DNA of 64,000 nt from Candidatus Omnitrophota bacterium (GCA_019052695.1 JAHQRI010000001.1:7755-71754), one strand, 5' to 3'; shown: positions 1 through 40,717, counted from the stretch's first letter. The notes: generated by a model from the sequence alone, not told the origin. Program-made: numbers and translations.

Positions 1-16
1 AGGGGGACCGGATTTT

Positions 17-442
17 ATGACCGGCTTGAACGCGGATGAAAAAATATGGAAAGGGCGGCCGACGTTCATTGCCAAACTCCCTTTTTTCTTTTCGGGGCTT
101 GTCCTGCTTGGGATCGCCCCGTTCTTTGTCGACGATTACCTCGGTTTGATGGGGGCGTTCCTTTTTACCGTTGTTTTCTTTCCGTGCTGGTTGGTCCTCT
201 CGTTTGTTTTCGTGTGCAGCGGGCGTTATGAGATCGGCCCTCAAAAAGTGACGGTGACCTACGGGATCTTCCGCAAAAAGACCGTTGTCGTTGAAAGGTC
301 CCAAATTCTTGCGGTCCGGTCAAAGCAAAGTTCCTGGGGCCGCGTCCTTGGCTACGGGGACGTGCTGCTCGATCTGCGCGGCGCTTCGGGTGTGACCGTG
401 ACGCTCAAAAGTGTCAGGCAGCCCACCGCGGTCCCGCTTTGA
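17..442 (+). CDS. membrane protein with bacterial PH (bPH_2/YdbS-like) domain
   Basis: Two N-terminal hydrophobic helices then a soluble domain. GGGGGA RBS lies ahead of the ATG at 17. Family call made from the overall pattern only. Confidence 0.45.
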   Translation: MTGLNADEKIWKGRPTFIAKLPFFFSGLVLLGIAPFFVDDYLGLMGAFLFTVVFFPCWLVLSFVFVCSGRYEIGPQKVTVTYGIFRKKTVVVERSQILAVRSKQSSWGRVLGYGDVLLDLRGASGVTVTLKSVRQPTAVPL

Positions 443-612
443 GAAAGGGGTCAAATATCAGGACTGTGACAAGGACCGCTTGACGGGAATCGATGACCGG
501 CTGCAACGTCTCCCCCGGGACGGTGTCCGGTCAACGGTCAATAAAAAAGGAATTTTGACGTAAACTATCCGAGGCTTCGAACGGCTTTCGGATCCAACAA
601 CGGAGGTGTTCC

Positions 613-1200
613 ATGACGTTCTTGTGGGTATTGCTCGGCCTTATCCTTTTGACCGTGATCACCGTGATCGGCATTTACAACGCGCTCGTTATCCTGCGGA
701 ACCGCTACAAGAACGCGTTCGCCCAGATCGACGTTCAACTCAAGCGCCGCTACGACCTCATCCCGAACCTCGTCGAGACGGCCCAGGGCTACCTGAAACA
801 TGAACGGGGCACCCTTGAAGCGGTGATCCAGGCCCGCAATCAGGCGTTGAGCGCGGCGGGGAAGGCCGCGGCGGCGCCCGGTGACCCGCGGGCCATGGGG
901 GACCTGAAGACCGCGGAGGCGGGACTGGCCGGCGCCCTCGGCAAGCTGTTCGCCCTGGCGGAAGCGTACCCGGACCTGAAGGCCAACCAGACGATGCTCT
1001 CGCTCATGGAAGAACTGACCTCGACCGAGAACAAGATCTCGTTCTCCCGTCAGGCCTACAACGACGCGGTCATGGAATACAACATCGGCCGCGAGAAATT
1101 CCCCAACGTCCTGCTCGCGGGCACGTTCGGTTTTACAGCGGCCGCGTTGCTCGAGCTCGAAAGCGCCGAGGAACGCAAAAGGCCGGACGTGAAGTTTTAG
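613..1200 (+). CDS. lemA: LemA family protein
   Basis: N-terminal TM helix followed by NALVILRNRYKNAFAQIDVQLKRRYDLIPNLVETA, a characteristic LemA core. GGAGGTG RBS. Confidence 0.85.
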   Translation: MTFLWVLLGLILLTVITVIGIYNALVILRNRYKNAFAQIDVQLKRRYDLIPNLVETAQGYLKHERGTLEAVIQARNQALSAAGKAAAAPGDPRAMGDLKTAEAGLAGALGKLFALAEAYPDLKANQTMLSLMEELTSTENKISFSRQAYNDAVMEYNIGREKFPNVLLAGTFGFTAAALLELESAEERKRPDVKF

Positions 1201-1218
1201 CCGCGGTTTTTTCCGGCC

Positions 1219-3222
1219 ATGAATTTTTTCGAGCACCAGGAGCAGGCCCGCAAGCGAACCCTGCTCCTGCTGTTCCTTTACGGTTTGGCCGTCGCCGGGA
1301 CCATCCTCGCCGTCTACATCGCCGCCAGGGCCTGCTGGTACCTGTTGTGGGTGACGGACATCCGCACGGGGGCCCAGGTGACCTCGATCCGGTGGTGGGA
1401 CCCCGGTTTTTTTCTGATTGTCACGGGCATCGTTTGCTCGGTGGTGGCGGCCGGCACGGTGCTGAAGGTCCTGCAGCTCTCCTCGGGAGGGGCCGCCGTC
1501 GCCCGGATGCTCGGCGGGGAGGCCATCGACCCCGGGACGGTCGATCCCGACGAGCGCAAGGTCCTGAACGTCGTCGAAGAGATGTCGATCGCTTCCGGCG
1601 TCCCCGTCCCTCCGGTCTATCTCCTGAACAAAGAATACGGGATCAACGCCTTCGCGGCCGGGTTCTCGTCCCGGGACGCGGTGATCGGCGTCACGCGGGG
1701 GGCGGTCCGGTTGCTTTCCCGCGATGAGCTCCAGGGCGTGATCGCGCACGAGTTCAGCCACATCTTTAACGGCGACATGCGCCTGAACATGCACCTGACG
1801 GGGTTTTTGAACGGTCTGCTTTTGATCGCGTTGACCGGCAAGACCATTTTGCGCGGGTTCCGGTACGGGGGGAGTGGCCGCTCCGGCCGCGGCGGGGCCG
1901 GAGCGGTCCTTGTGATCTTCCTGTTCGCCGTGCTCCTGGTCGCGGTGGGCTATGTCGGCGTTTTTTTCTGCAATTGGATCAAATCGGGTGTGTCGCGGCA
2001 GCGGGAATTCCTCGCGGACGCCTCTTCGGCCCAATTCACCCGCAACCCGTCCGGCCTCGCCGGGGCGCTCAAAAAGGTCGCGGGCCTTTCCGAGGGGTCC
2101 TTTGTCTGGGAGTCCAGGGCGGAAGAGGTCAGCCACTTTTTTTTCTCCGACGGGGTGAACCTGAGCGAGGACCCGATCCTCGGGACCCACCCGCCGCTGG
2201 TGCAGCGGATCGAACGGCTGGACCCTTCGTTCGACGGCCGGTATCCGGAGGTCACGTCCATCGCTCCCGGGCCGTCCAAAGTCCATCATCGGATCAAAGT
2301 CGCTTTGCCCAAGGCCCGGAAGCCTGAAGGATGGGATCGAAGGGCCGCGATCTTCGGCCTGCCGCTTGCGACCGTCGCGGGTCTTTCGGCCGCGGACACC
2401 CTTGTCGCGAGCGTCGGTACTGCCTCGCAAGAAAATCTGGCCGAAGCCGGAAGGATCCTCGAGGAGCTCCCCCGGTCCCTTCGCGATGCCGCACGATCGC
2501 TTGACGGCGCGACGGCCCTCGTCTACGGCCTTTTGATCGACCGGAGGAAAGACGAAGTGAGGGCCCGGCAGTTGGATTATTTGTCGCGGAAAGCCGGCCC
2601 GGACGTTCACCGGACGCTGCTCGGACTGCTCCCGGATTTTTCGAGCCTGAATCTGGAGTTCTGCCTGCCGCTCCTTGACCTCGCGACCCCGATGCTCAAA
2701 ACCCAGAGCCCCGCATCGTATCCCGCGTTCCGGGAGCATCTGGAGTCCCTGATCGCGATGAACCCCGAGGGGACGGTCTTTGAGTTCACCGTCAAACAGG
2801 TCGTGCTTCATCACCTCGATTTCTATTTCGGCAAGGCCCCGAGGCCCCGCCCGCTCCACGCGACGATCGGCGCGCTCTTGCCGGCGTGCGGCGTGCTCCT
2901 GTCCTTCCTGGCGGGGGCGGGTCAGATATCCCGGGCGGCCGCGGAAAAGGCGTTCCAGAAAGCCGCCCGTCAACTGGTCCCGGACCATGTTTGGAAATTC
3001 ATTCCCGGCGAGTCCCTCGCCTTCGAGAACGCGGAGAAGGCCTTACGAGACATGGCATCCGCTTTTCCCGGCGTCAAAGAGCAGTTCCTCAAGGCATGCG
3101 TCAGTTGCGTGGAATGCGACGGCAGGCTCGAGATCCGTGAGTTGGAACTCCTGCGGGCTTTTGCTTCGACCCTGGATTGTCCCATTCCCCGTTCTCCGGT
3201 CACCGGGCAAGCGCGCAGTTAA
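1219..3222 (+). CDS. M48 family zinc metallopeptidase (HtpX-like) with about 330-aa C-terminal extension
   Basis: HEFSHIFNGD contains HExxH. Multiple TM helices. Gene follows lemA, a known LemA-peptidase pairing. C-terminal half has no recognisable motifs. Confidence 0.7.
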   Translation: MNFFEHQEQARKRTLLLLFLYGLAVAGTILAVYIAARACWYLLWVTDIRTGAQVTSIRWWDPGFFLIVTGIVCSVVAAGTVLKVLQLSSGGAAVARMLGGEAIDPGTVDPDERKVLNVVEEMSIASGVPVPPVYLLNKEYGINAFAAGFSSRDAVIGVTRGAVRLLSRDELQGVIAHEFSHIFNGDMRLNMHLTGFLNGLLLIALTGKTILRGFRYGGSGRSGRGGAGAVLVIFLFAVLLVAVGYVGVFFCNWIKSGVSRQREFLADASSAQFTRNPSGLAGALKKVAGLSEGSFVWESRAEEVSHFFFSDGVNLSEDPILGTHPPLVQRIERLDPSFDGRYPEVTSIAPGPSKVHHRIKVALPKARKPEGWDRRAAIFGLPLATVAGLSAADTLVASVGTASQENLAEAGRILEELPRSLRDAARSLDGATALVYGLLIDRRKDEVRARQLDYLSRKAGPDVHRTLLGLLPDFSSLNLEFCLPLLDLATPMLKTQSPASYPAFREHLESLIAMNPEGTVFEFTVKQVVLHHLDFYFGKAPRPRPLHATIGALLPACGVLLSFLAGAGQISRAAAEKAFQKAARQLVPDHVWKFIPGESLAFENAEKALRDMASAFPGVKEQFLKACVSCVECDGRLEIRELELLRAFASTLDCPIPRSPVTGQARS

Positions 3223-28703: not shown

Positions 28704-30839
28704 TTAAGCCGCTTTTTGATAAGATTCCTGCCCGATGATCTCCTCGACAAGGATCCGCAAGAGCCCCAGGAACTCCGGATCTTTGGCTGCTCCGTAAAGG
28801 TCGGGGCTCAGTGCGACAACGCGGTAGAGTACCAGGGAAACGGGTGCCTCGGGGAGGACCACGTAAGCGTCGCTTTGGTAACCGTCTTTCATGATCGCGA
28901 AGGGGTATTTTTGAGCGAGCCGCCGGAACCGCGGCGTCTGGGTGACGAGAGTTCCGATATCTTCCACCTCAAACCGGTCGATCCCCCTCGGGGCGAGGAG
29001 CGCTTCGGGGAGCTCGGCCACGGGGAGGTCCTGGGCCAGGACGAGCGTGTCATGGTTCTCGATGATCGACTCGATCAGCCGGGGGACCGAGCGGTCGGGG
29101 ATCAGGTCCTTCAGGACGCTGGCTTGGGAAACGAGCAGGGTCTTCCTGCGGCCTGTCCGGGACCGCTCCATCCAGTCACGGACGGCGGCGAGCTGGTCTT
29201 CTCTTCCCCGGGACATGAATTCCGACTTCTTCAAAGAGATGACCGGGATCGCGTGGTCCTCGGATCCGCTTTCGAAAATTTTGCGGGTGGCGCGCAAATG
29301 CGAGGGTTTTTCCGCATCCGAAACGGACAGGGGCCCTCCGAGGAATGCTGCGACGGCTTTGCGGACGTCCTTGGTTTGCAACAACACCGTGTAAGCCCTC
29401 GTGAACTGCTCGTCCGCGGCGGCGGTCGCGTTCCTGAGCTCGGAGAGGGTCTGGTCTCCGGCCGGATTTTCCTGCATTCGCGCCAGGTAGAGGGCTTCGT
29501 TGACGGTCGTGTCCTCGCCAAGCTCCGGTGTGAGGGTGACGAAAGAGATCCCGGCCTCGCGGAGCTTTTGGGACAGACCGTCGGTGTGGAAGCCGCCGGT
29601 GACGACGGCGACGGGTCCCCGGAGCGCCGGATCACGCATGATCCTTTCAAAAAAGACCTCGTCACGCGCTTGCACGAGAGCATAGAATTCGAGAGCGGAG
29701 ATCCAGGCGGCGGTCAGCTCGGGGGTCTCGAGTTCCGCTTCGAGGGCAAGCTTCTCCCTTTCGGCCCTTTTCAGGTCGGACGGCGTTGCCTTGAGAAGCA
29801 GGACCTTTTCGGCGAGATAGAAACGCTCGGTCCTGTCCCAAAGGGCCCGTGCTTCGGGGCTCAAAAACATTGCGTCGGCAATGCGGTCTTTCAGGACCTG
29901 GATCTGGGCGTTCAGATCCGCGGGCGTGACCTTATCCCGGAGAGCGATGAGCTGCCGGAACTTCTTGATTTCTGGGTACCCGCCGTATTTTTCAGAGGCG
30001 ATGTTCCCGCTTCTGAGAAGTTCTTCGAAATTCCAGGAGGTGTTCTTGTATTTCTGTGTGAGATCCCTCACCTCGGACTCAAAACGCTCCCGCGGGATCG
30101 AATTTTCGAGGTCCATGATCTCCCGGACCAATGCGATCTGGTCGAGCCCAGTGTCCTTGACCCCTTGGGCTGCGGCGTTCTCTGTGAGGACCTTGAAGAA
30201 TTTTCCGAGATCCGACGTCCGATGGAAATCCCCATAGGCCTTGGCGAACGAGCGGAGAACGTCCGTCCAGGTCGCGGCTTGTTCCTCGCGGAGCGCGGAG
30301 GCGGCGGCCTCCAGTTTTTCAAGGATCTCGGAGGTCATCGACCGGTGGGCGAGCAAACTCTCCCGGTTCTTTTCGTAGAGGGGGGCGTCTTCGATCCCTA
30401 CGAGCTCTAGCGGTGAGGAAGCGAGGATCCCGGCGTAGAGGGGTCCCGACAGACGATCTTCTTCGAGAAGTGAGCGGGCGAGCAACTGCTTTTCACGGGA
30501 CGTCGGGATCGCTCGACTTTGGGTCAAGGCGGTCGCGGTCCAGGCACCCTCCAGGGCTACGGTCTGAATTCCGAACGCTTCGCGTAAATGGTCGAGGATC
30601 GCTGCGATATTTTCCTGCGCGATGAAGTGCGCGTGAACGTCCTGGACTTGAATGACCGTGCGGGGGCTTTGACCCACGTACCGTTCTTGGACCTTTCCCA
30701 AGGCCTCCGGCAAGGCAAGGTCGGTGAGGGAAAGTGTCGGGACCGCGTTATTCTCCGCGGAGCTTTCGGGCAGGGACAAAGCAAGCGATGCGAACAGGAT
30801 CCACGTGAGAGAGAGAACAAAATTTTTTTTCTTCATCAA
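28704..30839 (-). CDS. exported 711-aa protein with TraB/GumN(Tiki)-like module, paralogous to the N-terminus of the giant protein
   Basis: Signal peptide MMKKKNFVLSLTWILFASLALS after an AAGGAG SD. VIQVQDVHAHF..VALEGAW aligns with LLIHIQEAHANY..VLLEGAG of the giant protein. VVTGGFHTDGL aligns with LITGGFHTEGL, a GX2H motif. Confidence 0.6.
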   Translation of the reverse strand: MMKKKNFVLSLTWILFASLALSLPESSAENNAVPTLSLTDLALPEALGKVQERYVGQSPRTVIQVQDVHAHFIAQENIAAILDHLREAFGIQTVALEGAWTATALTQSRAIPTSREKQLLARSLLEEDRLSGPLYAGILASSPLELVGIEDAPLYEKNRESLLAHRSMTSEILEKLEAAASALREEQAATWTDVLRSFAKAYGDFHRTSDLGKFFKVLTENAAAQGVKDTGLDQIALVREIMDLENSIPRERFESEVRDLTQKYKNTSWNFEELLRSGNIASEKYGGYPEIKKFRQLIALRDKVTPADLNAQIQVLKDRIADAMFLSPEARALWDRTERFYLAEKVLLLKATPSDLKRAEREKLALEAELETPELTAAWISALEFYALVQARDEVFFERIMRDPALRGPVAVVTGGFHTDGLSQKLREAGISFVTLTPELGEDTTVNEALYLARMQENPAGDQTLSELRNATAAADEQFTRAYTVLLQTKDVRKAVAAFLGGPLSVSDAEKPSHLRATRKIFESGSEDHAIPVISLKKSEFMSRGREDQLAAVRDWMERSRTGRRKTLLVSQASVLKDLIPDRSVPRLIESIIENHDTLVLAQDLPVAELPEALLAPRGIDRFEVEDIGTLVTQTPRFRRLAQKYPFAIMKDGYQSDAYVVLPEAPVSLVLYRVVALSPDLYGAAKDPEFLGLLRILVEEIIGQESYQKAA

Positions 30840-31156
30840 CGGCTCCTTCGGGTGGAGGACCGATGCTTTGCCCGGCGCCCGATCTTTTCAGTGCTTTTTG
30901 TTCCAATGACCCCTCCATTATATAGTCCGAAAAACCAAAGAAATCAATAGGCCAAAAGGATCCGTGGCCGGATGCAGCCGGCTAAAAGCTGTTGTAACAA
31001 TTTATAACAAGACTTATTGATAGCTTTCAATATTTAAAAAAGGAATGAATTATTTTGTAAATCCTTTTTCAAATACTTGAATTCTTTTTTTTATATGGTA
31101 ACTTTTGCGTGAGTTTCATATCAATTGTCCCGAAAGGCGAGACGCTGACCCAAATC
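30840..31156. promoter_or_regulatory. AT-rich divergent promoter region between the two paralogs
   Basis: Sharply AT-rich against the GC-rich background. Several TATAAT/TTGAAT-like hexamers on both strands. Confidence 0.4.
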
Positions 31157-34100
31157 ATGGATTTTCCCTTAAGTGTGAAACGGTCCCTAGCGGTGACGGT
31201 GGCGGTCTGTTTTTTCGTGACCAGTCTGCCCGTCTCTCGTTCGTTCGCTGCGGCGGCTGTAGAGCCCTTCAGGGCACCATCCCAGCTGGACATTCCCATG
31301 GCATGGGGCAAGGTGACGGACATTGTCCGCCAGCCAACCGAAAATTCACCGCTTTTGATCCACATCCAGGAAGCCCACGCCAATTACGACGCTCAAAGGA
31401 ACATCCGGGATCTATTAAAGCATCTTGCCGAACACTACGGGGTCCGGTTGGTACTTCTGGAAGGCGCGGGCAATCAGCTTAATCCGGATCTGTTCCGATT
31501 TTTTCCCGATGAACCCGTGCTGCAGCAAACCGCGAACGACAAGCTCATGCGGGCGGGATTGCTTACCGGTGCCGAGACATTTTTGATCGACGAAGGAAAT
31601 GCCTCGAAAGCGGAAGGGTGGGGCGTTGAAAGGGCCGATCTGTACGCCAAGAACCGGGAGGATTTTAAGCAGGTCTACGAAGGCCGCAAGCTGTCCGCGG
31701 GATTTCTGGAAGATTTTTACCTTCGCTGGCAAAAATACGCATCACTTTTTTTGAGTAAGCCTCTCAGGGAATTTTTGTCCAAAGAGACTGCCTTTGAAGA
31801 GGATACATTGCCTCTCGCGGACTGGATGAACTTTCTTAGAACAGCGGCAGCACGGGAATTGAATATTGACCTCGAGAATGTTCGGGAACAGGCCGATTGG
31901 CCGGTTCTTGTCCGCTATTTCCGTCTCAAAGCGATCGACCCCAAGATCGACGTGCAAAAAGTCGAAGCGGAAAAGAAGGCATTTTTTGAACAAGTTCAAA
32001 AAATCGTAACTCGTTCCTCGGGACTCGGGACTCGAGAAACAAAGGATTCAAACAAGTCCCGAGGAACTAGTCTCGAGTCTCTTTTAGCAGAAGTTGAAGC
32101 GATCCTTGAACAGGCGAAAACGCACGACCTGCCCCTCTACAAAACCCGTTTCGTTTTTGAAAGATTGCTTGACCGGCTTCCGGAGGATTTTTCTTTCGAT
32201 ACTTATCCGGCTCTCCGGCTTTATCTCCAGCAGATCGTCCTTATGAGTGAACTTCAAGGGGATGCTTTGCAGGAGGAGATCAAGACCCTGAGCGGTAAGC
32301 TGACGGAAGTTCTCAGTGAGACAGAAAAAGACAGACGGTTTGCAGCGATCCTGCGCGATTTCCGGCTCCTTAAAAAACTTTTCCGGCTTGAGTTAAACCG
32401 TGGTGAATACCGTGACATTCTCATGCGCAAGATCACGCCCGGAAAAATTCTTCAGGAGCTCAGGGCCCAGGACCCAAAAGCGGAGGATCTCCCCCAAGAC
32501 CCTTCAGCCAGGTTCCGAAAGCTCGAAGCTCTTTATGGGACGGCAACCCGCTTTTACGAGGGAGCGATCGAGCGTGAAGGTGCGATGATGGAACGGGTGT
32601 TTGCAAGGATGCAGGAGCAGAAACAGACCAAGGCGGTGCTGATAACCGGCGGTTTTCACACCGAGGGCCTCAAGGAAAAAGCGGTCCGCGAGGGAAGCTC
32701 CTACATTGAGATCACGCCCCACATCGGCGAGATCACTTCTCATGATCGGGAAAATTATTTACGGGCCCTGCTTGGCAGAAATCTCGGCGTAACACCTGAC
32801 TACCGGTCAAGCGGGCGCAACGCCCAACGCGCAACGCAGGACAAAACCGTCGCGCTTCGAACATTGAGCGTTGAACGAAGCGAAATCGCGGCCCTGCTTC
32901 GTGGCGATATCCCTTTTTTAAAAGAAACGTCACGGGCTTGGCGCAGAGAGCTGGCAGAATTCGGAGCGGTTCTTTCCGAGCATTTGAGACAGATCACCAG
33001 CTCCGAAAAAGCCCGGGGGGCGGTCAACCACTACATAGCCGGGGCCGTTCGTGTTCCGTCTTTTGACGCCATGAAACGCCGTTCCGAAACGCGGGAGAGC
33101 GTTAAAGAGCTATCCGGGAAGGTCCTCAGAATTCCGGAACTGATGCTCCAACTTCCGCTTGAACCCGGGACTGAAGCCCTGGAAGGAACGCGCCGCATGG
33201 TAGGGCCGCTTGAAAAGGCGGCGCGACTGTTGGAGCCCCTCCTGGAGAGTTACGGGATCGGCAGCATTTGGCCTCACAACAGTCTTTTTGAAATGGGGGA
33301 ACTGTCCACCCGGATCCATCAGGTCCCCGACTCTGGCGAACACTTTCTGGTTTCCACGAACGGTAAAACGACCGTCAGGGTCGCGGGGTATGAAACAAAA
33401 CAAAAGGCTCTGGGGAACCGGGTTCTCCGCGACGACAAAGGGAACGCTTATTCTATTCGGGGAATGCGGAAGCTCAATCCCCGTTTGTCGGATTCGGCAA
33501 CGGAACAAGGGAACGCCGCAAAAACGGCAGAGCAGCTCATCGCTTTGAACAGAAAAGCCCGCAGTCTCGGGATCCGGACCGTGGCGGATTTTATCCCTGA
33601 GCTCGCGCCGGAAGCGATCAATGATTACAACCTCGATTGGACTTTTCATGAAAAACTTTCGCCGGGGGAAACGCAGTATTTCAACAGTCTTCCGGAAGAA
33701 ATAAAACAGTCCTACATCAACAGCAGCGTTCGTAAATGGGGGGGCGCTTTCTTCGCCAGGAGGTTGGGAAAATGGGGCAATGAAGAGATCGCCATGGTCC
33801 GTCATTTTCCCGGTCTCGGGAGCGGGCAGAACGTGGACCAGGCGCTCCTTAATGTTTTTGTTCCGGCGGTACAGAATTATTACAAGGACTCGCTTCGCTT
33901 TCTCATAGATCTGGGCTTTGACGCGGTCAGGATCGATATGGCGTCCTATCTTCTCGGGAAGAACCTGATCCGGTTCGTGAACGACAAGGGCCTGAGGTCG
34001 GATGTGCCGATGGAAGGGGAGCCTTTGAGGGAGATCATCCGGTATGCCAAGGACTACGCGTTCCAAAAGGGACGTTCTTTTGAGGTCGTGGCCGAAATTT

Positions 34101-37100
34101 ATGACGAGGAAGACCGGAATGCCTTGATGAACACGGGTGTTGACGTCGGGACCGATGTTCGCACCTACGATAACAGTTTTTTTGAAGAGCTTTTCAGATT
34201 CTCCCAAGATCCAGAGGCCCCGGCGGCGGACCTCGCGAGAATGATCGTGGAAAAGATCCTTCATAAGCTCGGGGATCCCGAGAACCGCGAAAATTTTCTC
34301 GCTTATTTTTCAAACCATGATCAAACCCCTCTTGCGGTGATGGCGGATCATAACAAAGAGATCGGAAAGAACTTCTCGTTGGCCGGCGTGACCGCGCTTT
34401 TGCTTGTGGGGGCTTATCTGGCGGAACCTTTCCTCAGCTTTTTTTTGACGCTCCGGGATTCTCTGGGGCAACGGGGCGATATCCTGCCGACCGTCGGCGG
34501 GGACATCAAGGACCATCGGGCCGACCTTGGGGGGAGGCACGCGCATCCGTTCCTCGAAACATCTCGCGAACTGACCGTCAGGACACATATCGAAAAGTTG
34601 GAAACCGCGATCCGAAAATCGTTTGCGTCGAAATTCTTGAAAGAACTTCACGCGGCCGCGAAAGGGACGGGGCAGACTTACATAAGGTTTCTGGAGAACG
34701 AGGATCCGGGCCGCGTCGCGAGTTTGGGTTGGCGGACCGTAAGCGGGGAATGGGTGGTCTTCGCGGTCGATCTCAGGCCTCATCAGGGTCCGCTCCATCT
34801 CAAACATATCGAATCTCCGGTGTTTCCCAAGGAAGCAGGTTCTCTGCAGGAATGGGAAGCCAAGGACGCGCTGACCGGTTCCAGTTTCGGAATTATATTC
34901 AAACGAGAAGGAGAGGCGACCCATCCTAGGATCCGGAATATTTCGTTCGGACAGGAAAGCGCCAACTACCGGCTGATCGTAATTACCCCGAAAGAGCATA
35001 AGAAACCCACCGAAAAGGTCCGCAACGAAAGAAAGAGGATGAAAAACGCGAACCAATTGAAACCTAAGGTAATCAACGAGCTCGATAGCATTGCCCGAGG
35101 CAGCGCGAAGGGCTATGAGTTTTTGATGCACCCCGCTTTTGAAAATTACTCGAACGCGCACAAAAAACAAGCAAGGGCCTACTTGCAGTTGCTAGCCGGA
35201 TCCTCGAATGATCTCATGGACATTTTAAAAGGCGCCCAGGAATTTCTCCGGAGTTACTACGCTAACATTGAGCGCATTCGCGAGAAATACGAAGAGACCG
35301 AGGAAGAAGCGTCCTTCGCGGTCAAGAAAGGGCCGCCCCTGTGTTATTTTGGGGGAAAGGACTTTGAGGGTTTTGAAAAGTTGTCGCCCGCGGATTTTTT
35401 AGAATCCCAGGGGGTTTCCGTCGGGGAGCTAAAAAACAGCGAGGCCAAGTTCAATTTGAGACAAGCCATACCCGCGACTTCGAGAACATTGGTCTTGGGG
35501 AAAAGCCTCGAACTTCCCAGGGCGAAGTCTTTGAACGCGGAAACGCTGAACCAACTGCTCCGAAGCCAGGGAGTGGAATATATTTCTGACATCACAGATA
35601 TCGCGTTTTATAAAATTCCCCGCTCCGAATTGCGTCAGGGTGATTTGCTTCCTCGCGCAGTCTCCGGCCTGATCTCGGGGGTCGCCGGCGGCAGCGTTCA
35701 AACGGTCATGGAGCTGAAACGTTCCGAGCTAAGGGATGAGAAGTTCCGGGGTTCCTACGAAGTGACCGAAGATGACAAAGGGCGAATCGTGATGCCCGCG
35801 CCGCTCAGGAAAAAGATCGCCGAAGACCTCGTGGGTGAAGTTGAGAAATATACCGATGAGTTCGGGCAAGAGCAGATCCTGTTCCGGATCTGGGAGGCGT
35901 CCGCCTGGGAAGAGAATTTCAAACAGGGTCTTCCGAAAGATAAGACAAAAGCCAGGGCCTATAAGGATCGGGAGTATGCCCGGATCTTTGATGTGGAGCT
36001 TTATGGTGAGGCCGGAAGGCTGAATTTGGCCGAAGTTCGCGCCAGGGGTCTTTTAAGCGGACCCGGGACCAAGTTTTTAGTCCAAGGGGCCGGAGATTCG
36101 ATCATTCTCAAGCCCAAGACCGCGCGCGCCGAACTGCGGACAGTTTCCCCCAAAAGGGGGCTTGAAGCTTACACCGTGGTCAGCCGCCAATTAGAGGCCG
36201 GCCTGGACCGGAGTATTTTGGAAGAAGTCCGTAAAAGTTTAGCGGACCGTTTCTCCGGGATGGGGAAAAGCTGGATCCGGCGGTATGTAGGGCTTGTGGC
36301 CGAGTTGACATTGACCGGCGGATTGGGCGCTCTCATGCATGACCTTTTCCCGGCGTGGGCACAAGCTTTGGGGATCAAGAACAAAGACCGCAAGGGGCTG
36401 ATCGCGATCAATGCGATCTATGACAATATCAAAGGACAGCAATATGCCAAATATCTTCCCGATGAAGTCAGGCAGGGGAAGACGACTTTGGGAGAATATT
36501 TGCGCGGCGTTTTGAAACGCGATGAAAGCCTGAACCTTGCGTTCGGTATGGACTTCGGGGAAGATTTCCGCCGCAAGACCGCCGAAGAAAGGGCCTGGGC
36601 CGAGCAGTACGGAAATCCGGGATACAAGGAAGCGGCCCGGAAAACGGAGAATATCATCGGAAAGACCATCCGAGTGGATGTTTACCCGACCCAAACCCAT
36701 TTTAACCAGACGCCCAATTATTATATCGACGCTTACTTTCTTGACAGCGAGGGCAAGAAGGTCCACATTTTTGATGAAGTCTATCCCGACGCCCCGCACG
36801 GCCGCCCTAATCTTTGGCGTGATATTCACATGGCAGTTTACGGATGGGCCACCCAGCACTTGGTGCGCGAACTCCAGCAAAAAGGCGTTGTGAAGGACAA
36901 TATCCTCTTCGTGGACAATGAGGTTTTTGTGAGCACGCCGACGCCGCTGTTCCCGGACGCGGTCCACCATCACATCAACCACACGGTTTTTCGTCCCGGT
37001 CTCTACATGCCGAACGAAGCCTCTTATGAAATGCTGGGGTATCCCGAGATCCAGCGTAAATATATTACGAAGAACGGGAAGATCGACATCGTCAACGCCG

Positions 37101-40100
37101 TGGGGATATCGTCCCGCTTGATCACGGGGGTGGCGATCTATGAACATACGAAGGCTTTAGAAGAAGATGTGATGGCGGCCTTCCCCCATAAGCTGCAAGC
37201 TTTCAACAAGGACGGTGTCCGCAACACCAACGGTGTTTTGATGGAGCAATGGCAGCTGCCGGCTTTGAGGGACTTGATCAGCGCGCATAAAGAAAAACTC
37301 GGTTTAAAACCGCAGGCCGCGGACAAGAAAATTTTTGAGAAGATAACCGCTTCAGGACAAGAAATGGTCCTTGAAGAGTTCAAACAAAAAGCGGAATTTG
37401 CGAAGGCGACCGGAGTTCTCGAGCTTCTTTTGTGGCTCAAAGAGGACCAGAATTTTCCCGCATGGTTTGACGAGATCGGTCTGGCTTATGCGTCGCAATC
37501 CGGCCTGAAGAATATAGATGACCAGAAATTGGTCGAGGATTTCAGGGATGCGGTGGCCGCGGCGATGGTCGATCCCGCGGCATGGCAGGCACTCATGCAG
37601 CGGCAGGATCTTGTCTGGTTGAAAAACGCGTTGTTCGAAAATCCGATCCTTGCCAATGTCCGCCGGCAGGTACCCTATAAAGGGCCGGACAAATGGCTGG
37701 AGATCCTCGAGAAATTGAGGGTTGATCCGCAGGCGCTGGAAGAATTCAAACGGGACGCCCCGCGTGTGATCATCGGCGGCCGTGAATTTGGCGACGACGC
37801 GCACTGGATGTTCCTGAGGATCCAGTCGCTGGTGGAGGAACTGGGACTGAAGGACAAGATCGCGACGATCGAAGACTACAATATCTATATCGCCCCGGTC
37901 ATTTTCGGGGGTGTTTCAGGGTCGATGATGCTTTCGGACGAAAAGCTGGAAGCTTCCGCGACCAGCATGATGAAGGCGATGGCGAACATGGCGGCCCTGA
38001 TGGGGGTCTGGGGCGGGGCCAATCCCGAACTTTTTACGATCATTGATAAGAAGACAGGCCGTGAACTGAACGCCATCCGGGACAAGATCACTCACGATCA
38101 GCTGGTGGAAAAAATGGCGAGCGGGGAGTGGGAAGTCCCTAACGGATTTCTGGTCGCTTACAGCCAGGAGGAATACAGCAACCAAACGGGAGGGGAAAGG
38201 CGTCCTTCGACGGCCTCTCTCATTCAAAGCCTATACGATCTTAAAAAGACCTGCCGGGATCCTGGCAGCCGCCGCAACCTTCAATTTGCCGTGCTCCGGT
38301 CGACCCCCAATGTGGATATGGCTAAAGGACAGGCCATCGCCCACAAAGCGTTATGGGAAAAAACCATCCAGACCTTGCAAAAGGAAGACGAATTTTTTGA
38401 AAGCTTGGATATTTCAGCGGACGACGCGGAACAATTTCTCAAAAAATCACTTGCTCAAGAAGGAGGCCTGGAATTCCTTTGGCACGGCACGACCCAGGAC
38501 GCTTGGAATATTCACGGGATCTTGGGGTTCATTCAGGGATTCCGTCATCTGCGCATGAAAGGGAGGGAGAGTTACAACAGCGTTGCTTTTCATGCGTACA
38601 ATGGAAAAAAAGGGGACATTTTCACATACCTTGAAAAATTCTTCGAAGGGTTCGATGAAACCTTCATTCCCGTGACGCGAAAGCTCAAAGCGCTTTCAGC
38701 CCGGGCGCAAAAGGCGGGATCCCCGCAGGACAAAGTCCGTGCTAATTTGGAAGCTTTGGAGCTCGTCGAACGGCTTGCGGTCGCGATATCGTTCCATCTT
38801 TTCAAGCACTATGTGAAGACCGGCGATAAAAAAGCAGAGGCCTATTGGGCCAATCCTGCGGTCCGCGAAAACCTTTCGATCTATTTGGAGAAAAACGGCG
38901 TTCCTTTCAAATCGATCGCCAAGAATATCCGCGGGTATGCGGTGGACATAGAAGGACAGCGATATATCGTCGCGCTCAATTTCGGCGAGTTCGGTTTCCC
39001 GGGCGAAAAAGGGGAGAAGGCCTGGGGTTCCTTTTATGGCCGTGAGGCGCTCGATCATCTTTTAGAAAAACCGGAAGAAACGCACATTTACCAGGTGCTT
39101 GATGCGATCTCTGGGGAAGTTTATGGGAAATATTCTTTGCGCCAAATGGTCGAAACAATCCGGATCGGCGTCCCCTCTTTGGGCGCCCAGGTCCTGCAGG
39201 TCGTGGATTCCGGGGAACGGACCGAAGCATCAGAGGCTGCGCTGAGCGGGGATGTCCTGGGATATCTTGAAGCGTTAACGGCAGGCCGTCTTGTGAGCGA
39301 TGAGGTGCCGATCACACAGCTCCTTTTCAGGCAGGTCGTCGACGAAGGGACCGTTGTTGCCGGAAAGGGAGAGGAGGCCGGTCGAAAAAGGATCGTTGAT
39401 CCCACGAAGATGGAACCGTTGTTGAGCCGTGTGACGGGTCTTTCCAGGAAAGAGGCGGTCGAAAAATTCGGAGAAAAAGGGATCCCTCCCGTTATGGCCT
39501 TTATTGCGGTCCTGTCCCCGGCCGGTCTCGAGCAGATCAGGGATTGGAATGACGAGGTTTATACCGCGCTGAACGGGGTGATCCATCAGCCGCAAATTGA
39601 AAAGCTTCTTCAGGACGGCGCTCTTTGGTTCCACAAAACCGACCGCGCAAGCGCGCTGGTCATTTCAAAAAGCCTGGACGGGAAAAATGTGGTCGTCCCC
39701 ATCCATTTTTCCGCGACTCCTTTCCGTTCCGTTGACGGCAAGGCATGGTTCCGGGTTTCGGATTTTGACCGGTTGGGCGTTTTGCTTTCCGAAAACGGCA
39801 GGTACCAGGCCCGCAATGTTCTTGCCAATAAAGTCTATCCGCTTCAGCACGATCAAGAAAAGATCTCCGGCGAGAAGTGGTCCCTCGGCGTTCCCGTCGC
39901 GGTGCCGGAAGACCTGGGCGTTTTTCACGAACCTCTTTATCACTTTCAGGTCCTCGAGATCATTCCCGCCGTTTCTGAGCCGGTCCAGCGCTCGGAAATG
40001 CGGGAAGGTATCACGACCATTCCGAGGACGACGGAGGCCCTTATTGAAACGAATCGATCCATGGGCGGGGGAGCGGTACGGGGATTCCGCGGGGTCACGG

Positions 40101-40717
40101 ACAAGATCACCGGCGGGATCTGGTCGCTTACGGTCTACGCCTTCCATGCCGTAGAACTCACAGCATCGTTCTTTGGCCTGACAGCTGCCCCGGCCCCTGA
40201 GGCTTTTGATATCGCTGCGGTCCCTGCGACCCCTGAGGAAAAGAAACGTTTTGACGACGCCCGAAAGGTCCTGTTCGGCGGAAAGGCCTACGGGGATTCG
40301 GACGTTCTGATCCTTGCGCCGGAGTTCGGGGTCGATCTTGGCGCGGCGCTCCTCATGCGGAAGGTTGCCGGGGACGTTCCGGTCGCGGTGCTCGTGCGGG
40401 ATGATGCCGACCGCCGGTTCCTTGACCAGATCAACTCCGAGCTTGAAGCGGGGAACCGCCCGTTGATCTTTGCGGCAGGGACGCTCCGTGAGGCCGCCCA
40501 GTACCTGAGGAGGGCGGTGCGCGGGAAGATGAATATCAAGCCGATGGTTTACGCGGGAGAGAATAACCCTCAAGCCGATCTTTTGTTGCAGCAGTACGGG
40601 GACGCGGTGATCACCGTCACGCAGGGTATGTTCCGGAACTTCCTCAGCCTTGCCGGGATCAGCGAGACCGTGACCCGATTGCGCGACGAGTACCTCGCGC
40701 TTGCGCGCTCGGCGTAA
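31157..40717 (+). CDS. giant (about 3,186 aa) exported multidomain protein: TraB/GumN-like N-module, GH13-like domain, GT35 alpha-glucan phosphorylase-like domain
   Basis: 9.6 kb open frame. Signal peptide MDFPLSVKRSLAVTVAVCFFVTSLPVSRSFAAAA. GH13 regions GFDAVRIDMASYL, FEVVAEIY, FSNHDQ. GT35 motifs LTGGLGALMHD and EASATSMMKAMANMAALMGVWGG (PLP lysine). Confidence 0.6.
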   Translation: MDFPLSVKRSLAVTVAVCFFVTSLPVSRSFAAAAVEPFRAPSQLDIPMAWGKVTDIVRQPTENSPLLIHIQEAHANYDAQRNIRDLLKHLAEHYGVRLVLLEGAGNQLNPDLFRFFPDEPVLQQTANDKLMRAGLLTGAETFLIDEGNASKAEGWGVERADLYAKNREDFKQVYEGRKLSAGFLEDFYLRWQKYASLFLSKPLREFLSKETAFEEDTLPLADWMNFLRTAAARELNIDLENVREQADWPVLVRYFRLKAIDPKIDVQKVEAEKKAFFEQVQKIVTRSSGLGTRETKDSNKSRGTSLESLLAEVEAILEQAKTHDLPLYKTRFVFERLLDRLPEDFSFDTYPALRLYLQQIVLMSELQGDALQEEIKTLSGKLTEVLSETEKDRRFAAILRDFRLLKKLFRLELNRGEYRDILMRKITPGKILQELRAQDPKAEDLPQDPSARFRKLEALYGTATRFYEGAIEREGAMMERVFARMQEQKQTKAVLITGGFHTEGLKEKAVREGSSYIEITPHIGEITSHDRENYLRALLGRNLGVTPDYRSSGRNAQRATQDKTVALRTLSVERSEIAALLRGDIPFLKETSRAWRRELAEFGAVLSEHLRQITSSEKARGAVNHYIAGAVRVPSFDAMKRRSETRESVKELSGKVLRIPELMLQLPLEPGTEALEGTRRMVGPLEKAARLLEPLLESYGIGSIWPHNSLFEMGELSTRIHQVPDSGEHFLVSTNGKTTVRVAGYETKQKALGNRVLRDDKGNAYSIRGMRKLNPRLSDSATEQGNAAKTAEQLIALNRKARSLGIRTVADFIPELAPEAINDYNLDWTFHEKLSPGETQYFNSLPEEIKQSYINSSVRKWGGAFFARRLGKWGNEEIAMVRHFPGLGSGQNVDQALLNVFVPAVQNYYKDSLRFLIDLGFDAVRIDMASYLLGKNLIRFVNDKGLRSDVPMEGEPLREIIRYAKDYAFQKGRSFEVVAEIYDEEDRNALMNTGVDVGTDVRTYDNSFFEELFRFSQDPEAPAADLARMIVEKILHKLGDPENRENFLAYFSNHDQTPLAVMADHNKEIGKNFSLAGVTALLLVGAYLAEPFLSFFLTLRDSLGQRGDILPTVGGDIKDHRADLGGRHAHPFLETSRELTVRTHIEKLETAIRKSFASKFLKELHAAAKGTGQTYIRFLENEDPGRVASLGWRTVSGEWVVFAVDLRPHQGPLHLKHIESPVFPKEAGSLQEWEAKDALTGSSFGIIFKREGEATHPRIRNISFGQESANYRLIVITPKEHKKPTEKVRNERKRMKNANQLKPKVINELDSIARGSAKGYEFLMHPAFENYSNAHKKQARAYLQLLAGSSNDLMDILKGAQEFLRSYYANIERIREKYEETEEEASFAVKKGPPLCYFGGKDFEGFEKLSPADFLESQGVSVGELKNSEAKFNLRQAIPATSRTLVLGKSLELPRAKSLNAETLNQLLRSQGVEYISDITDIAFYKIPRSELRQGDLLPRAVSGLISGVAGGSVQTVMELKRSELRDEKFRGSYEVTEDDKGRIVMPAPLRKKIAEDLVGEVEKYTDEFGQEQILFRIWEASAWEENFKQGLPKDKTKARAYKDREYARIFDVELYGEAGRLNLAEVRARGLLSGPGTKFLVQGAGDSIILKPKTARAELRTVSPKRGLEAYTVVSRQLEAGLDRSILEEVRKSLADRFSGMGKSWIRRYVGLVAELTLTGGLGALMHDLFPAWAQALGIKNKDRKGLIAINAIYDNIKGQQYAKYLPDEVRQGKTTLGEYLRGVLKRDESLNLAFGMDFGEDFRRKTAEERAWAEQYGNPGYKEAARKTENIIGKTIRVDVYPTQTHFNQTPNYYIDAYFLDSEGKKVHIFDEVYPDAPHGRPNLWRDIHMAVYGWATQHLVRELQQKGVVKDNILFVDNEVFVSTPTPLFPDAVHHHINHTVFRPGLYMPNEASYEMLGYPEIQRKYITKNGKIDIVNAVGISSRLITGVAIYEHTKALEEDVMAAFPHKLQAFNKDGVRNTNGVLMEQWQLPALRDLISAHKEKLGLKPQAADKKIFEKITASGQEMVLEEFKQKAEFAKATGVLELLLWLKEDQNFPAWFDEIGLAYASQSGLKNIDDQKLVEDFRDAVAAAMVDPAAWQALMQRQDLVWLKNALFENPILANVRRQVPYKGPDKWLEILEKLRVDPQALEEFKRDAPRVIIGGREFGDDAHWMFLRIQSLVEELGLKDKIATIEDYNIYIAPVIFGGVSGSMMLSDEKLEASATSMMKAMANMAALMGVWGGANPELFTIIDKKTGRELNAIRDKITHDQLVEKMASGEWEVPNGFLVAYSQEEYSNQTGGERRPSTASLIQSLYDLKKTCRDPGSRRNLQFAVLRSTPNVDMAKGQAIAHKALWEKTIQTLQKEDEFFESLDISADDAEQFLKKSLAQEGGLEFLWHGTTQDAWNIHGILGFIQGFRHLRMKGRESYNSVAFHAYNGKKGDIFTYLEKFFEGFDETFIPVTRKLKALSARAQKAGSPQDKVRANLEALELVERLAVAISFHLFKHYVKTGDKKAEAYWANPAVRENLSIYLEKNGVPFKSIAKNIRGYAVDIEGQRYIVALNFGEFGFPGEKGEKAWGSFYGREALDHLLEKPEETHIYQVLDAISGEVYGKYSLRQMVETIRIGVPSLGAQVLQVVDSGERTEASEAALSGDVLGYLEALTAGRLVSDEVPITQLLFRQVVDEGTVVAGKGEEAGRKRIVDPTKMEPLLSRVTGLSRKEAVEKFGEKGIPPVMAFIAVLSPAGLEQIRDWNDEVYTALNGVIHQPQIEKLLQDGALWFHKTDRASALVISKSLDGKNVVVPIHFSATPFRSVDGKAWFRVSDFDRLGVLLSENGRYQARNVLANKVYPLQHDQEKISGEKWSLGVPVAVPEDLGVFHEPLYHFQVLEIIPAVSEPVQRSEMREGITTIPRTTEALIETNRSMGGGAVRGFRGVTDKITGGIWSLTVYAFHAVELTASFFGLTAAPAPEAFDIAAVPATPEEKKRFDDARKVLFGGKAYGDSDVLILAPEFGVDLGAALLMRKVAGDVPVAVLVRDDADRRFLDQINSELEAGNRPLIFAAGTLREAAQYLRRAVRGKMNIKPMVYAGENNPQADLLLQQYGDAVITVTQGMFRNFLSLAGISETVTRLRDEYLALARSA
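32815..32878 (+). repeat. CGCAACG heptamer hairpin element inserted in-frame in the giant CDS
   Basis: gcgcaacgcccaacgcgcaacg ... cgttgaacg. Encodes SGRNAQRATQDKTVALRTLSVERSE between the N-module and the GH13-like region. Confidence 0.6.

Follow-up and report, generated by a model that had tools for sequence, protein, structure and literature searches.

What is encoded by an uninterrupted bacterial reading frame of 9.6 kb, one protein or many? The question is raised by a gene in a 64,000-nucleotide stretch of DNA from a Candidatus Omnitrophota bacterium (GCA_019052695.1, JAHQRI010000001.1:7755-71754), which is referred to as the window throughout. Omnitrophota is an uncultured phylum of ultra-small, host-dependent bacteria of which giant genes are a hallmark, and these giant open reading frames (ORFs) have been called poorly understood (Seymour et al.). 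An original prediction, made from the sequence of the window alone, took the 3,186-amino acid (aa) product of this gene, here called the giant, for a unique exported alpha-glucan machine joining three modules. Our analysis showed instead that the giant is a member of a family with a fixed grammar, in which a signal peptide and a head of ~600 aa are followed by whole-protein cargo units separated by short delimiter peptides and by a tail of ~230 aa. We regard this as close to certain. Of the three modules, one is the head and the other two are interchangeable cargo units in this family-wide architecture, so that the picture of a unique three-module alpha-glucan machine has to be given up. With the grammar in hand, the question of one protein or many becomes directly testable for the Omnitrophota giants.

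Family-wide architecture and delimiter peptides

An exhaustive phmmer search with residues 1-620 of the giant against 1.84 billion representative proteins found the head in 7,070 clusters at E<=1e-3 and in 764 at E<=1e-30. The match lay at residues ~1-540 of almost every protein, and the lengths of these proteins ranged from 299 to 7,670 aa. When species-representative genomes were scanned with two conserved head peptides, 28 loci were confirmed, almost all of them titled Candidatus Omnitrophota or Omnitrophica. The cargo of the relatives, as confirmed by Pfam, includes UDP-glucose dehydrogenase, response-regulator receivers, PPDK, UDPGP and PGM. Since these are unrelated enzymes of cytoplasmic type, a single functional polypeptide is implausible.

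The units of the giant are separated by a pentapeptide, R-[S/A]-E-hydrophobic-R, which occurs five times where 0.18 copies are expected from shuffling. Relatives contain up to 30 copies (0.4 expected), while stand-alone phosphorylase homologs lacking the head contain none, and none was found in the other ORFs of at least 150 aa in the window. Across the 953 sites in 150 relatives, the core consists of R, S (79%) or A (21%), E, one of L/V/A/M/I, and R; the flanks are unconserved apart from small residues just before the core. Sites are a median of 207 aa apart, the first of them at about residue 616, directly behind the head. Delimiters frame whole units: in the giant a MraZ-like unit is bracketed exactly, and homology to phosphorylases begins 7-11 residues past a delimiter. 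The five copies of the giant differ in their synonymous codons, which indicates that the constraint acts on the peptide; for the same reason a DNA-level recombination site was considered and rejected. For annotation and structure prediction, the delimiters offer an objective criterion by which such giants can be divided into units.

A second delimiter dialect, [a/g]ASLG, recurs at equivalent positions in long head-bearing proteins that have no R[S/A]ExR. P0097 has nine copies, the first directly behind its head, and the other proteins of this type are P0146, P0109, P0062, P0093, P0145, P0155 and P0070. At least two RSExR copies were found in 120 proteins and at least two ASLG copies in 8, whereas no protein had both. 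The C-terminal tripeptide tracks the dialect, being -[RKH]SA with RSExR and -xAA with ASLG. The features of the giant and of its neighbour are listed in the table.

Features of the giant gene and of the divergent neighbouring gene in the window
Feature	Residues (aa)	Window position	Strand	Remarks
Giant gene	1-3186	31157..40717	+	3,186 codons and stop; NCBI MBU9888272.1; collinear ortholog P0007
Putative Sec-type signal peptide	1-33	31157..31255	+	sequence, hydropathy, family conservation
Head	34-641	31256..33079	+	predicted Tiki/TraB/EreA/ChaN-fold alpha/beta core, split
Delimiter 1, RSETR	642-646	33080..33094	+
Cargo A1, putative divergent GH13-like (alpha-amylase family)	647-1285	33095..35011	+	PF00128, TreS alignment
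Cargo A2, no recognisable family	1286-1488	35012..35620	+	decayed delimiter in front
Delimiter 2, RSELR	1489-1493	35621..35635	+
Cargo B, 28-residue spacer module	1494-1521	35636..35719	+	between delimiters 2 and 3
Delimiter 3, RSELR	1522-1526	35720..35734	+
Cargo C, complete MraZ-like (double SpoVT/AbrB) unit	1527-1656	35735..36124	+	exactly delimiter-bracketed
Delimiter 4, RAELR	1657-1661	36125..36139	+
Cargo D, divergent GT35-like alpha-glucan phosphorylase	1662-2540	36140..38776	+	PF00343, TIGR02094, PDB alignments
C-terminal extension of cargo D, no known family	2541-2944	38777..39988	+	family comparison
Delimiter 5, RSEMR	2945-2949	39989..40003	+	predicted local distance difference test (pLDDT) below 50 in tail model
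Tail	2950-3186	40004..40714	+	ends -ARSA
Cargo-less head paralog	710 aa from ATG	28704..30836	-	divergent to giant
AT-rich intergenic region, 320 bp		30837..31156	.	between the divergent genes

The reading frame extends on the plus strand from 31109 (GTG) or 31157 (ATG) to 40717, giving 3,202 or 3,186 codons, and no stop codon interrupts its 9.6 kb. M1 is invariant in homologs, whose N-termini align to the ATG at 31157, and this ATG is therefore the supported start. The exact 3,186-aa product is deposited at NCBI as MBU9888272.1, from a Ca. Omnitrophica metagenome-assembled genome (contig of 72,963 bp), where it is named "glycogen/starch/alpha-glucan phosphorylase". An ortholog, P0007 (3,160 aa), was recovered from independent Logan assemblies; it matches the giant collinearly from end to end at 75% identity, and its delimiter positions are collinear too. 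This ortholog is reason to dismiss a chance ORF, a chimera or a pseudogene, and the claim of the original prediction that so long a frame is not a chance product stands; its description of the DNA as GC-rich does not, the G+C content of the gene region being only ~53%. The origin in a metagenome-assembled genome might still suggest an artefact, be it an assembly chimera, a fusion of neighbouring genes or a decaying pseudogene. Against this stand the ortholog, the stop-free frame, the recurrence of the grammar in 28 genomes and the strong purifying selection seen in comparison with P0007 (85-98% identity in the GH13-like part, the best-kept region, versus 75% overall), and we consider the chance of an artefact practically negligible.

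The same ortholog and the GenBank entry also mean that the novelty claimed for the architecture has to be stated differently, as do two preprints on multi-enzyme Omnitrophota giants (West-Roberts et al. 2023, bioRxiv 10.1101/2023.11.21.568195; Nielsen and Lui 2026, bioRxiv 10.64898/2026.06.07.730766). Like the giant, a relative of 5,091 aa (MFH1799534.1) is named in the database for only one of its domains, in its case 'nucleotide sugar dehydrogenase'. Names of this kind on multi-module giants would mislead metabolic reconstructions.

Head, cargo units and tail

The putative signal peptide has K8 and R9 in its n-region, an h-region of 16 residues (aa 10-25) and an A-x-A site in which FAA is followed by A. 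The h-region is the sole transmembrane (TM)-like hydropathy peak of the giant outside the enzyme cores. The original prediction had also proposed a Sec signal peptide, which agrees with the finding that the K/R, F19, T22 and A-x-A positions are conserved across 135 heads.

An all-helical insertion of ~330 aa divides the core of the head into two parts (aa ~46-160 and 488-541). Residues 1-560 were modelled with AlphaFold2 from a 12-sequence alignment (pLDDT 79, predicted template modelling score 0.73), and the predicted alpha/beta core has six strands, at aa 51-57, 66-72, 98-101, 153-156, 492-498 and 515-521. The predicted catalytic set is E72-A-H74, E102, R473 and G498-G-F-H501; of the 135 heads, 134 have H74 and E102, and 134-135 have R473 and the GGFH motif that ends at H501. 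The set reported for the superfamily in the structure paper of RRSP is E3900-x-H3902, E3930 and H4030 with R4001 (PMC6254334). The spacing from H74 to E102 is 28 residues, as it is from H3902 to E3930, and that from R473 to H501 is 28 residues versus 29 from R4001 to H4030. The only Pfam model with a hit to the head was ChaN (PF04187), with an E value of 0.071 and 13.5 bits against a cut-off of 27.7, and NCBIfam gave no match to it. Judged from the model, the head stands in the Tiki superfamily by its fold and active site, and in no curated sequence family. The motifs on which a TraB/GumN/Tiki module had been proposed (LLIHIQEAH at aa 66-74, LVLLEGAG at aa 98-105 and LITGGFHTEGL at aa 495-505) are all present; that assignment holds for the predicted fold and active site, and no curated sequence model gives it significance.

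Every head also has a delimiter-like segment about 35 residues past the Tiki core, which in the giant reads RSEIA (aa 574-578, window 32876-32890). Its consensus is [KRT]-S/A-[TQHE]-hydrophobic-[EA], with Ser or Ala in 124 of the 135 heads. It may serve as a pseudosubstrate or be the first site to be cleaved in cis.

For cargo A1, the tile of the giant gave a match to Pfam PF00128 (E 8.5e-5) of 22.4 bits against a cut-off of 22, and the whole protein gave 18.6 bits. D927, in GFDAVRID, aligns to D230 of TreS (3zo9), the nucleophile position, while E980 (VVAEIY) and H1054-D1055 (FSNHDQ) are candidates for regions III and IV, read from the sequence in the places where these regions are expected. 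The catalytic D, E and D are kept in P0007, P0008 and P0009. The region I histidine (DxxxNH) is absent from the module, which has ADFIPE at aa 810-815 without Asn-His, an atypical region I as had been predicted. The GH13 motifs that had been quoted were also all found, DFIPEL at aa 811, GFDAVRIDMASYL at aa 920, FEVVAEIY at aa 975 and FSNHDQ at aa 1051. On these data the GH13 call is marginal: the nucleophile alignment and the tile score speak for it and the whole-protein score against it. A hydrophobic stretch at aa 1081-1099 was considered as a membrane span and rejected, as its position is that of the buried beta8 region of GH13 enzymes.

Cargo A2 has no match in Pfam, NCBIfam or the PDB. 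Between the GH13-like part and A2 lies a decayed delimiter, RNERK (aa ~1289-1293, window ~35021-35035), which reads RSERK in P0007. The matching segments of P0008 and P0009 are separate modules with an intact RSEAR or RSETR between them. From this comparison, A1 and A2 look like two cargo units in the course of fusing.

Cargo C matched Pfam PF02381 with 27.5 bits (cut-off 23). In NCBIfam, aa 1528-1655 aligned to positions 3-134 of the 163 of MraZ with 23 bits, and since this is far under the equivalog cut-off of 162, the unit is MraZ-like rather than a MraZ ortholog. The same kind of module is flanked by delimiters in P0013 and P0027.

Cargo D matched Pfam PF00343 with 32.6 bits as a tile and 27.2 bits in the whole protein (cut-off 27). 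It fell short of the NCBIfam cut-offs, with 25.4 versus 191.7 bits for TIGR02094 and 21.8 versus 552.9 bits for TIGR02093. When a profile of five GT35-like sequences was compared with the PDB, all 24 matches were phosphorylases, aligned on the pyridoxal 5'-phosphate (PLP)-lysine. EASATSMMK (aa 2265; K2273) aligns to EASGTSNMK of 4bqe and to other phosphorylases, and EASATSMMK...GANPE matches the PLP-lysine block of plant PHS2 residue for residue. Other motifs are GGLGAL at aa 1721, NHT at aa 1941-1943 and RRQVPYK at aa 2169-2175, the last inside the stretch aligned to TIGR02094 (aa 2124-2287). RRQVPYK is a candidate for the phosphate-site motif (KRxxEYKR; RRxxxYK in the short clade), and NHT may contain the sugar-binding His. 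Both motifs quoted for a short-clade phosphorylase, GGLGALMHD at aa 1721 and the EASATSMMK block at aa 2265, are in place, and that proposal is borne out by PF00343 and the intact PLP-lysine, with TIGR02094 far from its cut-off. As a whole, the profile hidden Markov model (HMM) searches favoured the original prediction at PF00343, left PF00128 at the borderline and gave no match for PF01963.

Among 5.8 billion proteins, the GT35-like unit has only six close relatives (35-39% identity). Five of these, P0001-P0005, stand alone at ~1,000 aa, begin with a signal-peptide-like sequence and align to the giant from aa 1668. They suggest that there is a small clade of phosphorylase-like proteins that are exported and have not yet been described. 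In P0006, the head is fused to a GT35-like unit alone with one delimiter between them. Outside the head family, P0001-P0005 (listed with locus L002, GCA_974330525.1) are the sole close relatives of the GT35-like unit.

The C-terminal extension of cargo D has no match in Pfam, NCBIfam or the PDB, and its last ~300 aa also follow a glycogen-synthase-like (GT5) cargo in P0011, P0027 and P0091. This distribution suggests that the ~400-aa extension may be an accessory domain specific to the alpha-glucan enzymes of the family.

The tail consists, in order, of a GGG-x3-GFRGVT-x-KIT-GGI segment, an amphipathic helix and a five-stranded Rossmann-like alpha/beta domain, which was modelled with confidence; no specific structural relative of the modelled tail was found. 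At least 37 of 150 proteins have a tail of ~230 aa ending in -[RKH]SA, and it is C-terminal in every case. The native C-terminus, -RSA, resembles the delimiter start, RSE. More than 1,500 residues of the giant had been held to carry no signature. This is so for A2 and the extension of cargo D, which match no family, while the MraZ-like unit, the five delimiters and the tail had been missed.

These cargo data bear on the view that the giant is a one-off fusion of TraB/Tiki, GH13 and GT35 parts into a single secreted alpha-glucan machine. Both recognisable enzymes are alpha-glucan-directed, sugar and glycogen enzymes recur as cargo, and P0006 consists of just the head and the GT35-like unit with one delimiter. 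But thousands of proteins share the same head and carry non-glucan cargo such as receiver domains, PPDK and kinases, their modules are separated by family-wide delimiters, and the MraZ-like unit, the tail and the paired gene described below would be left unexplained. We consider such a one-off fusion improbable.

The paired gene and possible processing of the giant

In the neighbouring short paralog, a predicted signal peptide is followed by a Tiki-fold head whose catalytic set is intact and by a conserved C-terminal domain of ~250 aa ending in -QKAA; delimiters and the tail are absent. It is related to the head of the giant with a BLASTP E value of 2e-12 and a head HMM E value of 1e-58, and it has no Pfam match. 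A structure of head plus tail minus cargo was tried for it and rejected (hhalign probability 0.6%; tail HMM 4 bits). The same divergent pairing was found in 21 of the 28 Omnitrophota loci, with 150-330 bp between the genes, and the catalytic columns are conserved in all 18 full-length short paralogs. The recurrent pairing indicates that the functional unit is a two-gene system and therefore extends past the coordinates of the giant. The intergenic region presumably holds the promoters of both genes; promoter and terminator scans around the giant gene gave nothing informative. In the minus-strand short paralogs of L004, L007, L009, L010, L012 and L017, the sequence L-R-S-E-[T/A/M]-P comes straight after the h-region of the signal peptide. 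This RSE-type motif lies at the predicted mature N-terminus, and the paralog in the window differs in having SLPESSAE.

We propose that the giant would be exported through Sec and would behave as a polyprotein, with the delimiters as recognition sites for site-specific proteolysis. The protease would be a Tiki-type endopeptidase of the system, either the head of the giant itself or the neighbouring paralog; Tiki and RRSP are site-specific endopeptidases (PMC6254334). Cleavage would set the enzymes free from one another outside the cytoplasm, perhaps at a host cell or within it, where the GH13-like enzyme and the phosphorylase would turn glycogen-like polymers into oligosaccharides and glucose-1-phosphate. 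That these polymers belong to the host is speculation. As a whole, an exported polyprotein cut at its delimiters by a Tiki-type endopeptidase is the explanation that we prefer, though tentatively, and it may well prove wrong. For the delimiters taken by themselves, a role as processing sites is a real possibility that falls somewhat short of being probable. It is rather unlikely, in our estimate, that a Tiki head is the protease, and we are more doubtful still of the full two-gene polyprotein system, in which cleavage at R[S/A]ExR or ASLG would be followed by delivery outside, plausibly into or onto the host, mobilising its glycogen and sugar-nucleotide pools.

Processing is favoured by five points. 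A sharp, flank-independent peptide sits between autonomous units. Two exclusive dialects fill equivalent positions, as do the consensus sequences of viral cleavage sites. Every member has a protease-fold domain with invariant catalytic residues, and so does the partner gene. The native -RSA C-terminus resembles the start of a delimiter, and the cargo sets are unrelated between members.

Several points weigh against this proposal. Cleavage has been observed nowhere in the family, by proteomics or biochemistry, and the signal peptide that we assign to the giant was read by eye. Export is hard to square with cargo that needs nucleotides (UDP-glucose dehydrogenase, PPDK, receivers), unless this cargo acts in the cytoplasm of another cell. 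The phosphorylase needs PLP, yet PLP biosynthesis has been reported as missing or incomplete in the phylum (PMC10407285). As to the head, the Pfam TraB model (PF01963) does not match it, Foldseek against the PDB gave nothing significant, and the position of E72 is not conserved in the 135 heads (T 56, E 31, D 22, S 18). The Tiki superfamily also holds esterases (Ere) and the haem-binding ChaN, so the fold alone does not make the head a protease. Head residues co-varying with the dialect were also looked for, and no column separated RSExR from ASLG with the eight ASLG-type proteins; co-evolution of head and site is thus unsupported.

The lack of observed cleavage is also what an unprocessed, tethered multi-enzyme scaffold would give. 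Such a scaffold would be held by an uncleaved signal-anchor or by head and tail, and its pentapeptides would be hinges or docking peptides, which may bind the helical insertion of the head, the tail, the paralog or a chaperone. Comparable proteins are taken by Nielsen and Lui as membrane-associated single polypeptides, and the h-region of the head (F19, T22) is unusually conserved for a disposable signal peptide. However, a hinge requires neither an invariant R-x-E-x-R core nor an exclusive four-residue second dialect at the same positions, and the unrelated cargo sets of the members argue against a coordinated assembly line. We regard the scaffold as possible and on the unlikely side.

The nature of the cargo, typically cytoplasmic with its use of NAD, UTP, ATP or PLP and including a DNA-binding MraZ-like unit, would also suit a polyprotein that stays in the cytoplasm. 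Its N-terminal stretch would then be no export signal, and the arrangement would serve co-expression from one gene in a regulator-poor reduced genome. Against this stand the full set of Sec features (basic n-region, 16-residue h-region, A-x-A then E), which is kept in the 135 heads and in the short paralogs, and the stand-alone GT35-like homologs, which also start with a signal-peptide-like sequence. In addition, a signal peptide, TM helices or both have been predicted for 94% of the long proteins of Omnitrophota. A cytoplasmic polyprotein is thus quite unlikely in our view.

Were both processing and export true, the secreted effectors of bacterial symbiosis or predation would include metabolic enzymes as well as toxins, and the exported polyprotein would correspond, in a cellular organism and with metabolic enzymes as its effectors, to viral polyproteins and MARTX toxins.

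Relation to known systems and surroundings of the gene

The Omnitrophota giants of both preprints are similar to this one in phylum, in having a signal peptide and in carrying many unrelated cytoplasmic-type enzyme domains. West-Roberts et al. described Dockerin-type giants for which cleavage by C39 or S8 was proposed, with information on the cleavage points absent. Nielsen and Lui defined a 'multi-enzyme metabolic cluster' class among proteins of at least 10,000 aa, and the words 'motif', 'cleav', 'linker' and 'polyprotein' do not occur in their text. The features of their class 1 are found in the giant, namely an Omnitrophota origin, GH13-, MraZ- and GT35-like units and a signal-peptide-like N-terminus. 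Sugar-metabolism domains dominate in the preprint giants (starch synthase, GT1, PGM, receiver domains). These surveys covered proteins of at least 10,000 aa by Pfam content only, whereas the present protein, with its 3,186 aa, lies outside their catalogue, and they mention no Tiki-fold head, tail, R[S/A]ExR or ASLG delimiters or paired paralog. In the literature that we searched, the coverage of which was incomplete, no description of the head, tail, delimiters or gene pair was found. Multi-enzyme Omnitrophota giants are thus already known, while the organising grammar and the likely processing logic appear to be new.

By analogy, MARTX toxins would be the closest functional analogue. They too are secreted and very large, their ends are conserved while the effector modules in between vary and are shuffled, and an in-built protease frees these modules at short inter-module sites; processing of the giant is hypothetical. 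The Tiki fold predicted for the head is also that of the MARTX effector RRSP, but in the giant the Tiki domain is a constant head and not cargo. Pfam and NCBIfam searches of the whole protein gave no RTX or glycine-rich repeats, no C-terminal type I secretion signal and no InsP6-activated cysteine protease domain. The giant differs further in its predicted Sec-type signal and in carrying metabolic enzymes rather than cytotoxins, and the resemblance is one of logic only. Viral polyproteins are also comparable, since in them complete proteins from one ORF are split at short, sharp, lineage-variable peptides and the protease is encoded in the same ORF. The giant, in contrast, belongs to a cellular organism and a chromosomal housekeeping context, and its cleavage is hypothetical.

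Within the Tiki superfamily (RRSP endopeptidase, Tiki Wnt protease, EreB/EreC esterases), the head differs by its ~330-aa helical insertion and by its first Glu, which is often T, D or S. Cargo D shares the GGLG motif and the PLP-lysine block EAS-x-TS-x-MK-x3-N-x5-G-x3-GAN-x-E with GT35 phosphorylases of the short TIGR02094 type. It differs from known GT35 phosphorylases in that only ~100-160 residues align, that it is predicted from its sequence to be exported and that it has the 400-aa extension.

The neighbours in the window are ordinary chromosomal housekeeping genes, encoding MqnA, M24, M17 and M48 peptidases, transketolase, MutY, ExoIII, gamma-glutamyltranspeptidase and ATP synthase. Near the start of the window, two long ORFs overlap on opposite strands (565-2988 on the minus strand and 1219-3222 on the plus strand). 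Of the two, only the plus-strand ORF has a family match (M48 peptidase), and the 807-aa minus-strand ORF at 565-2988 is probably spurious.

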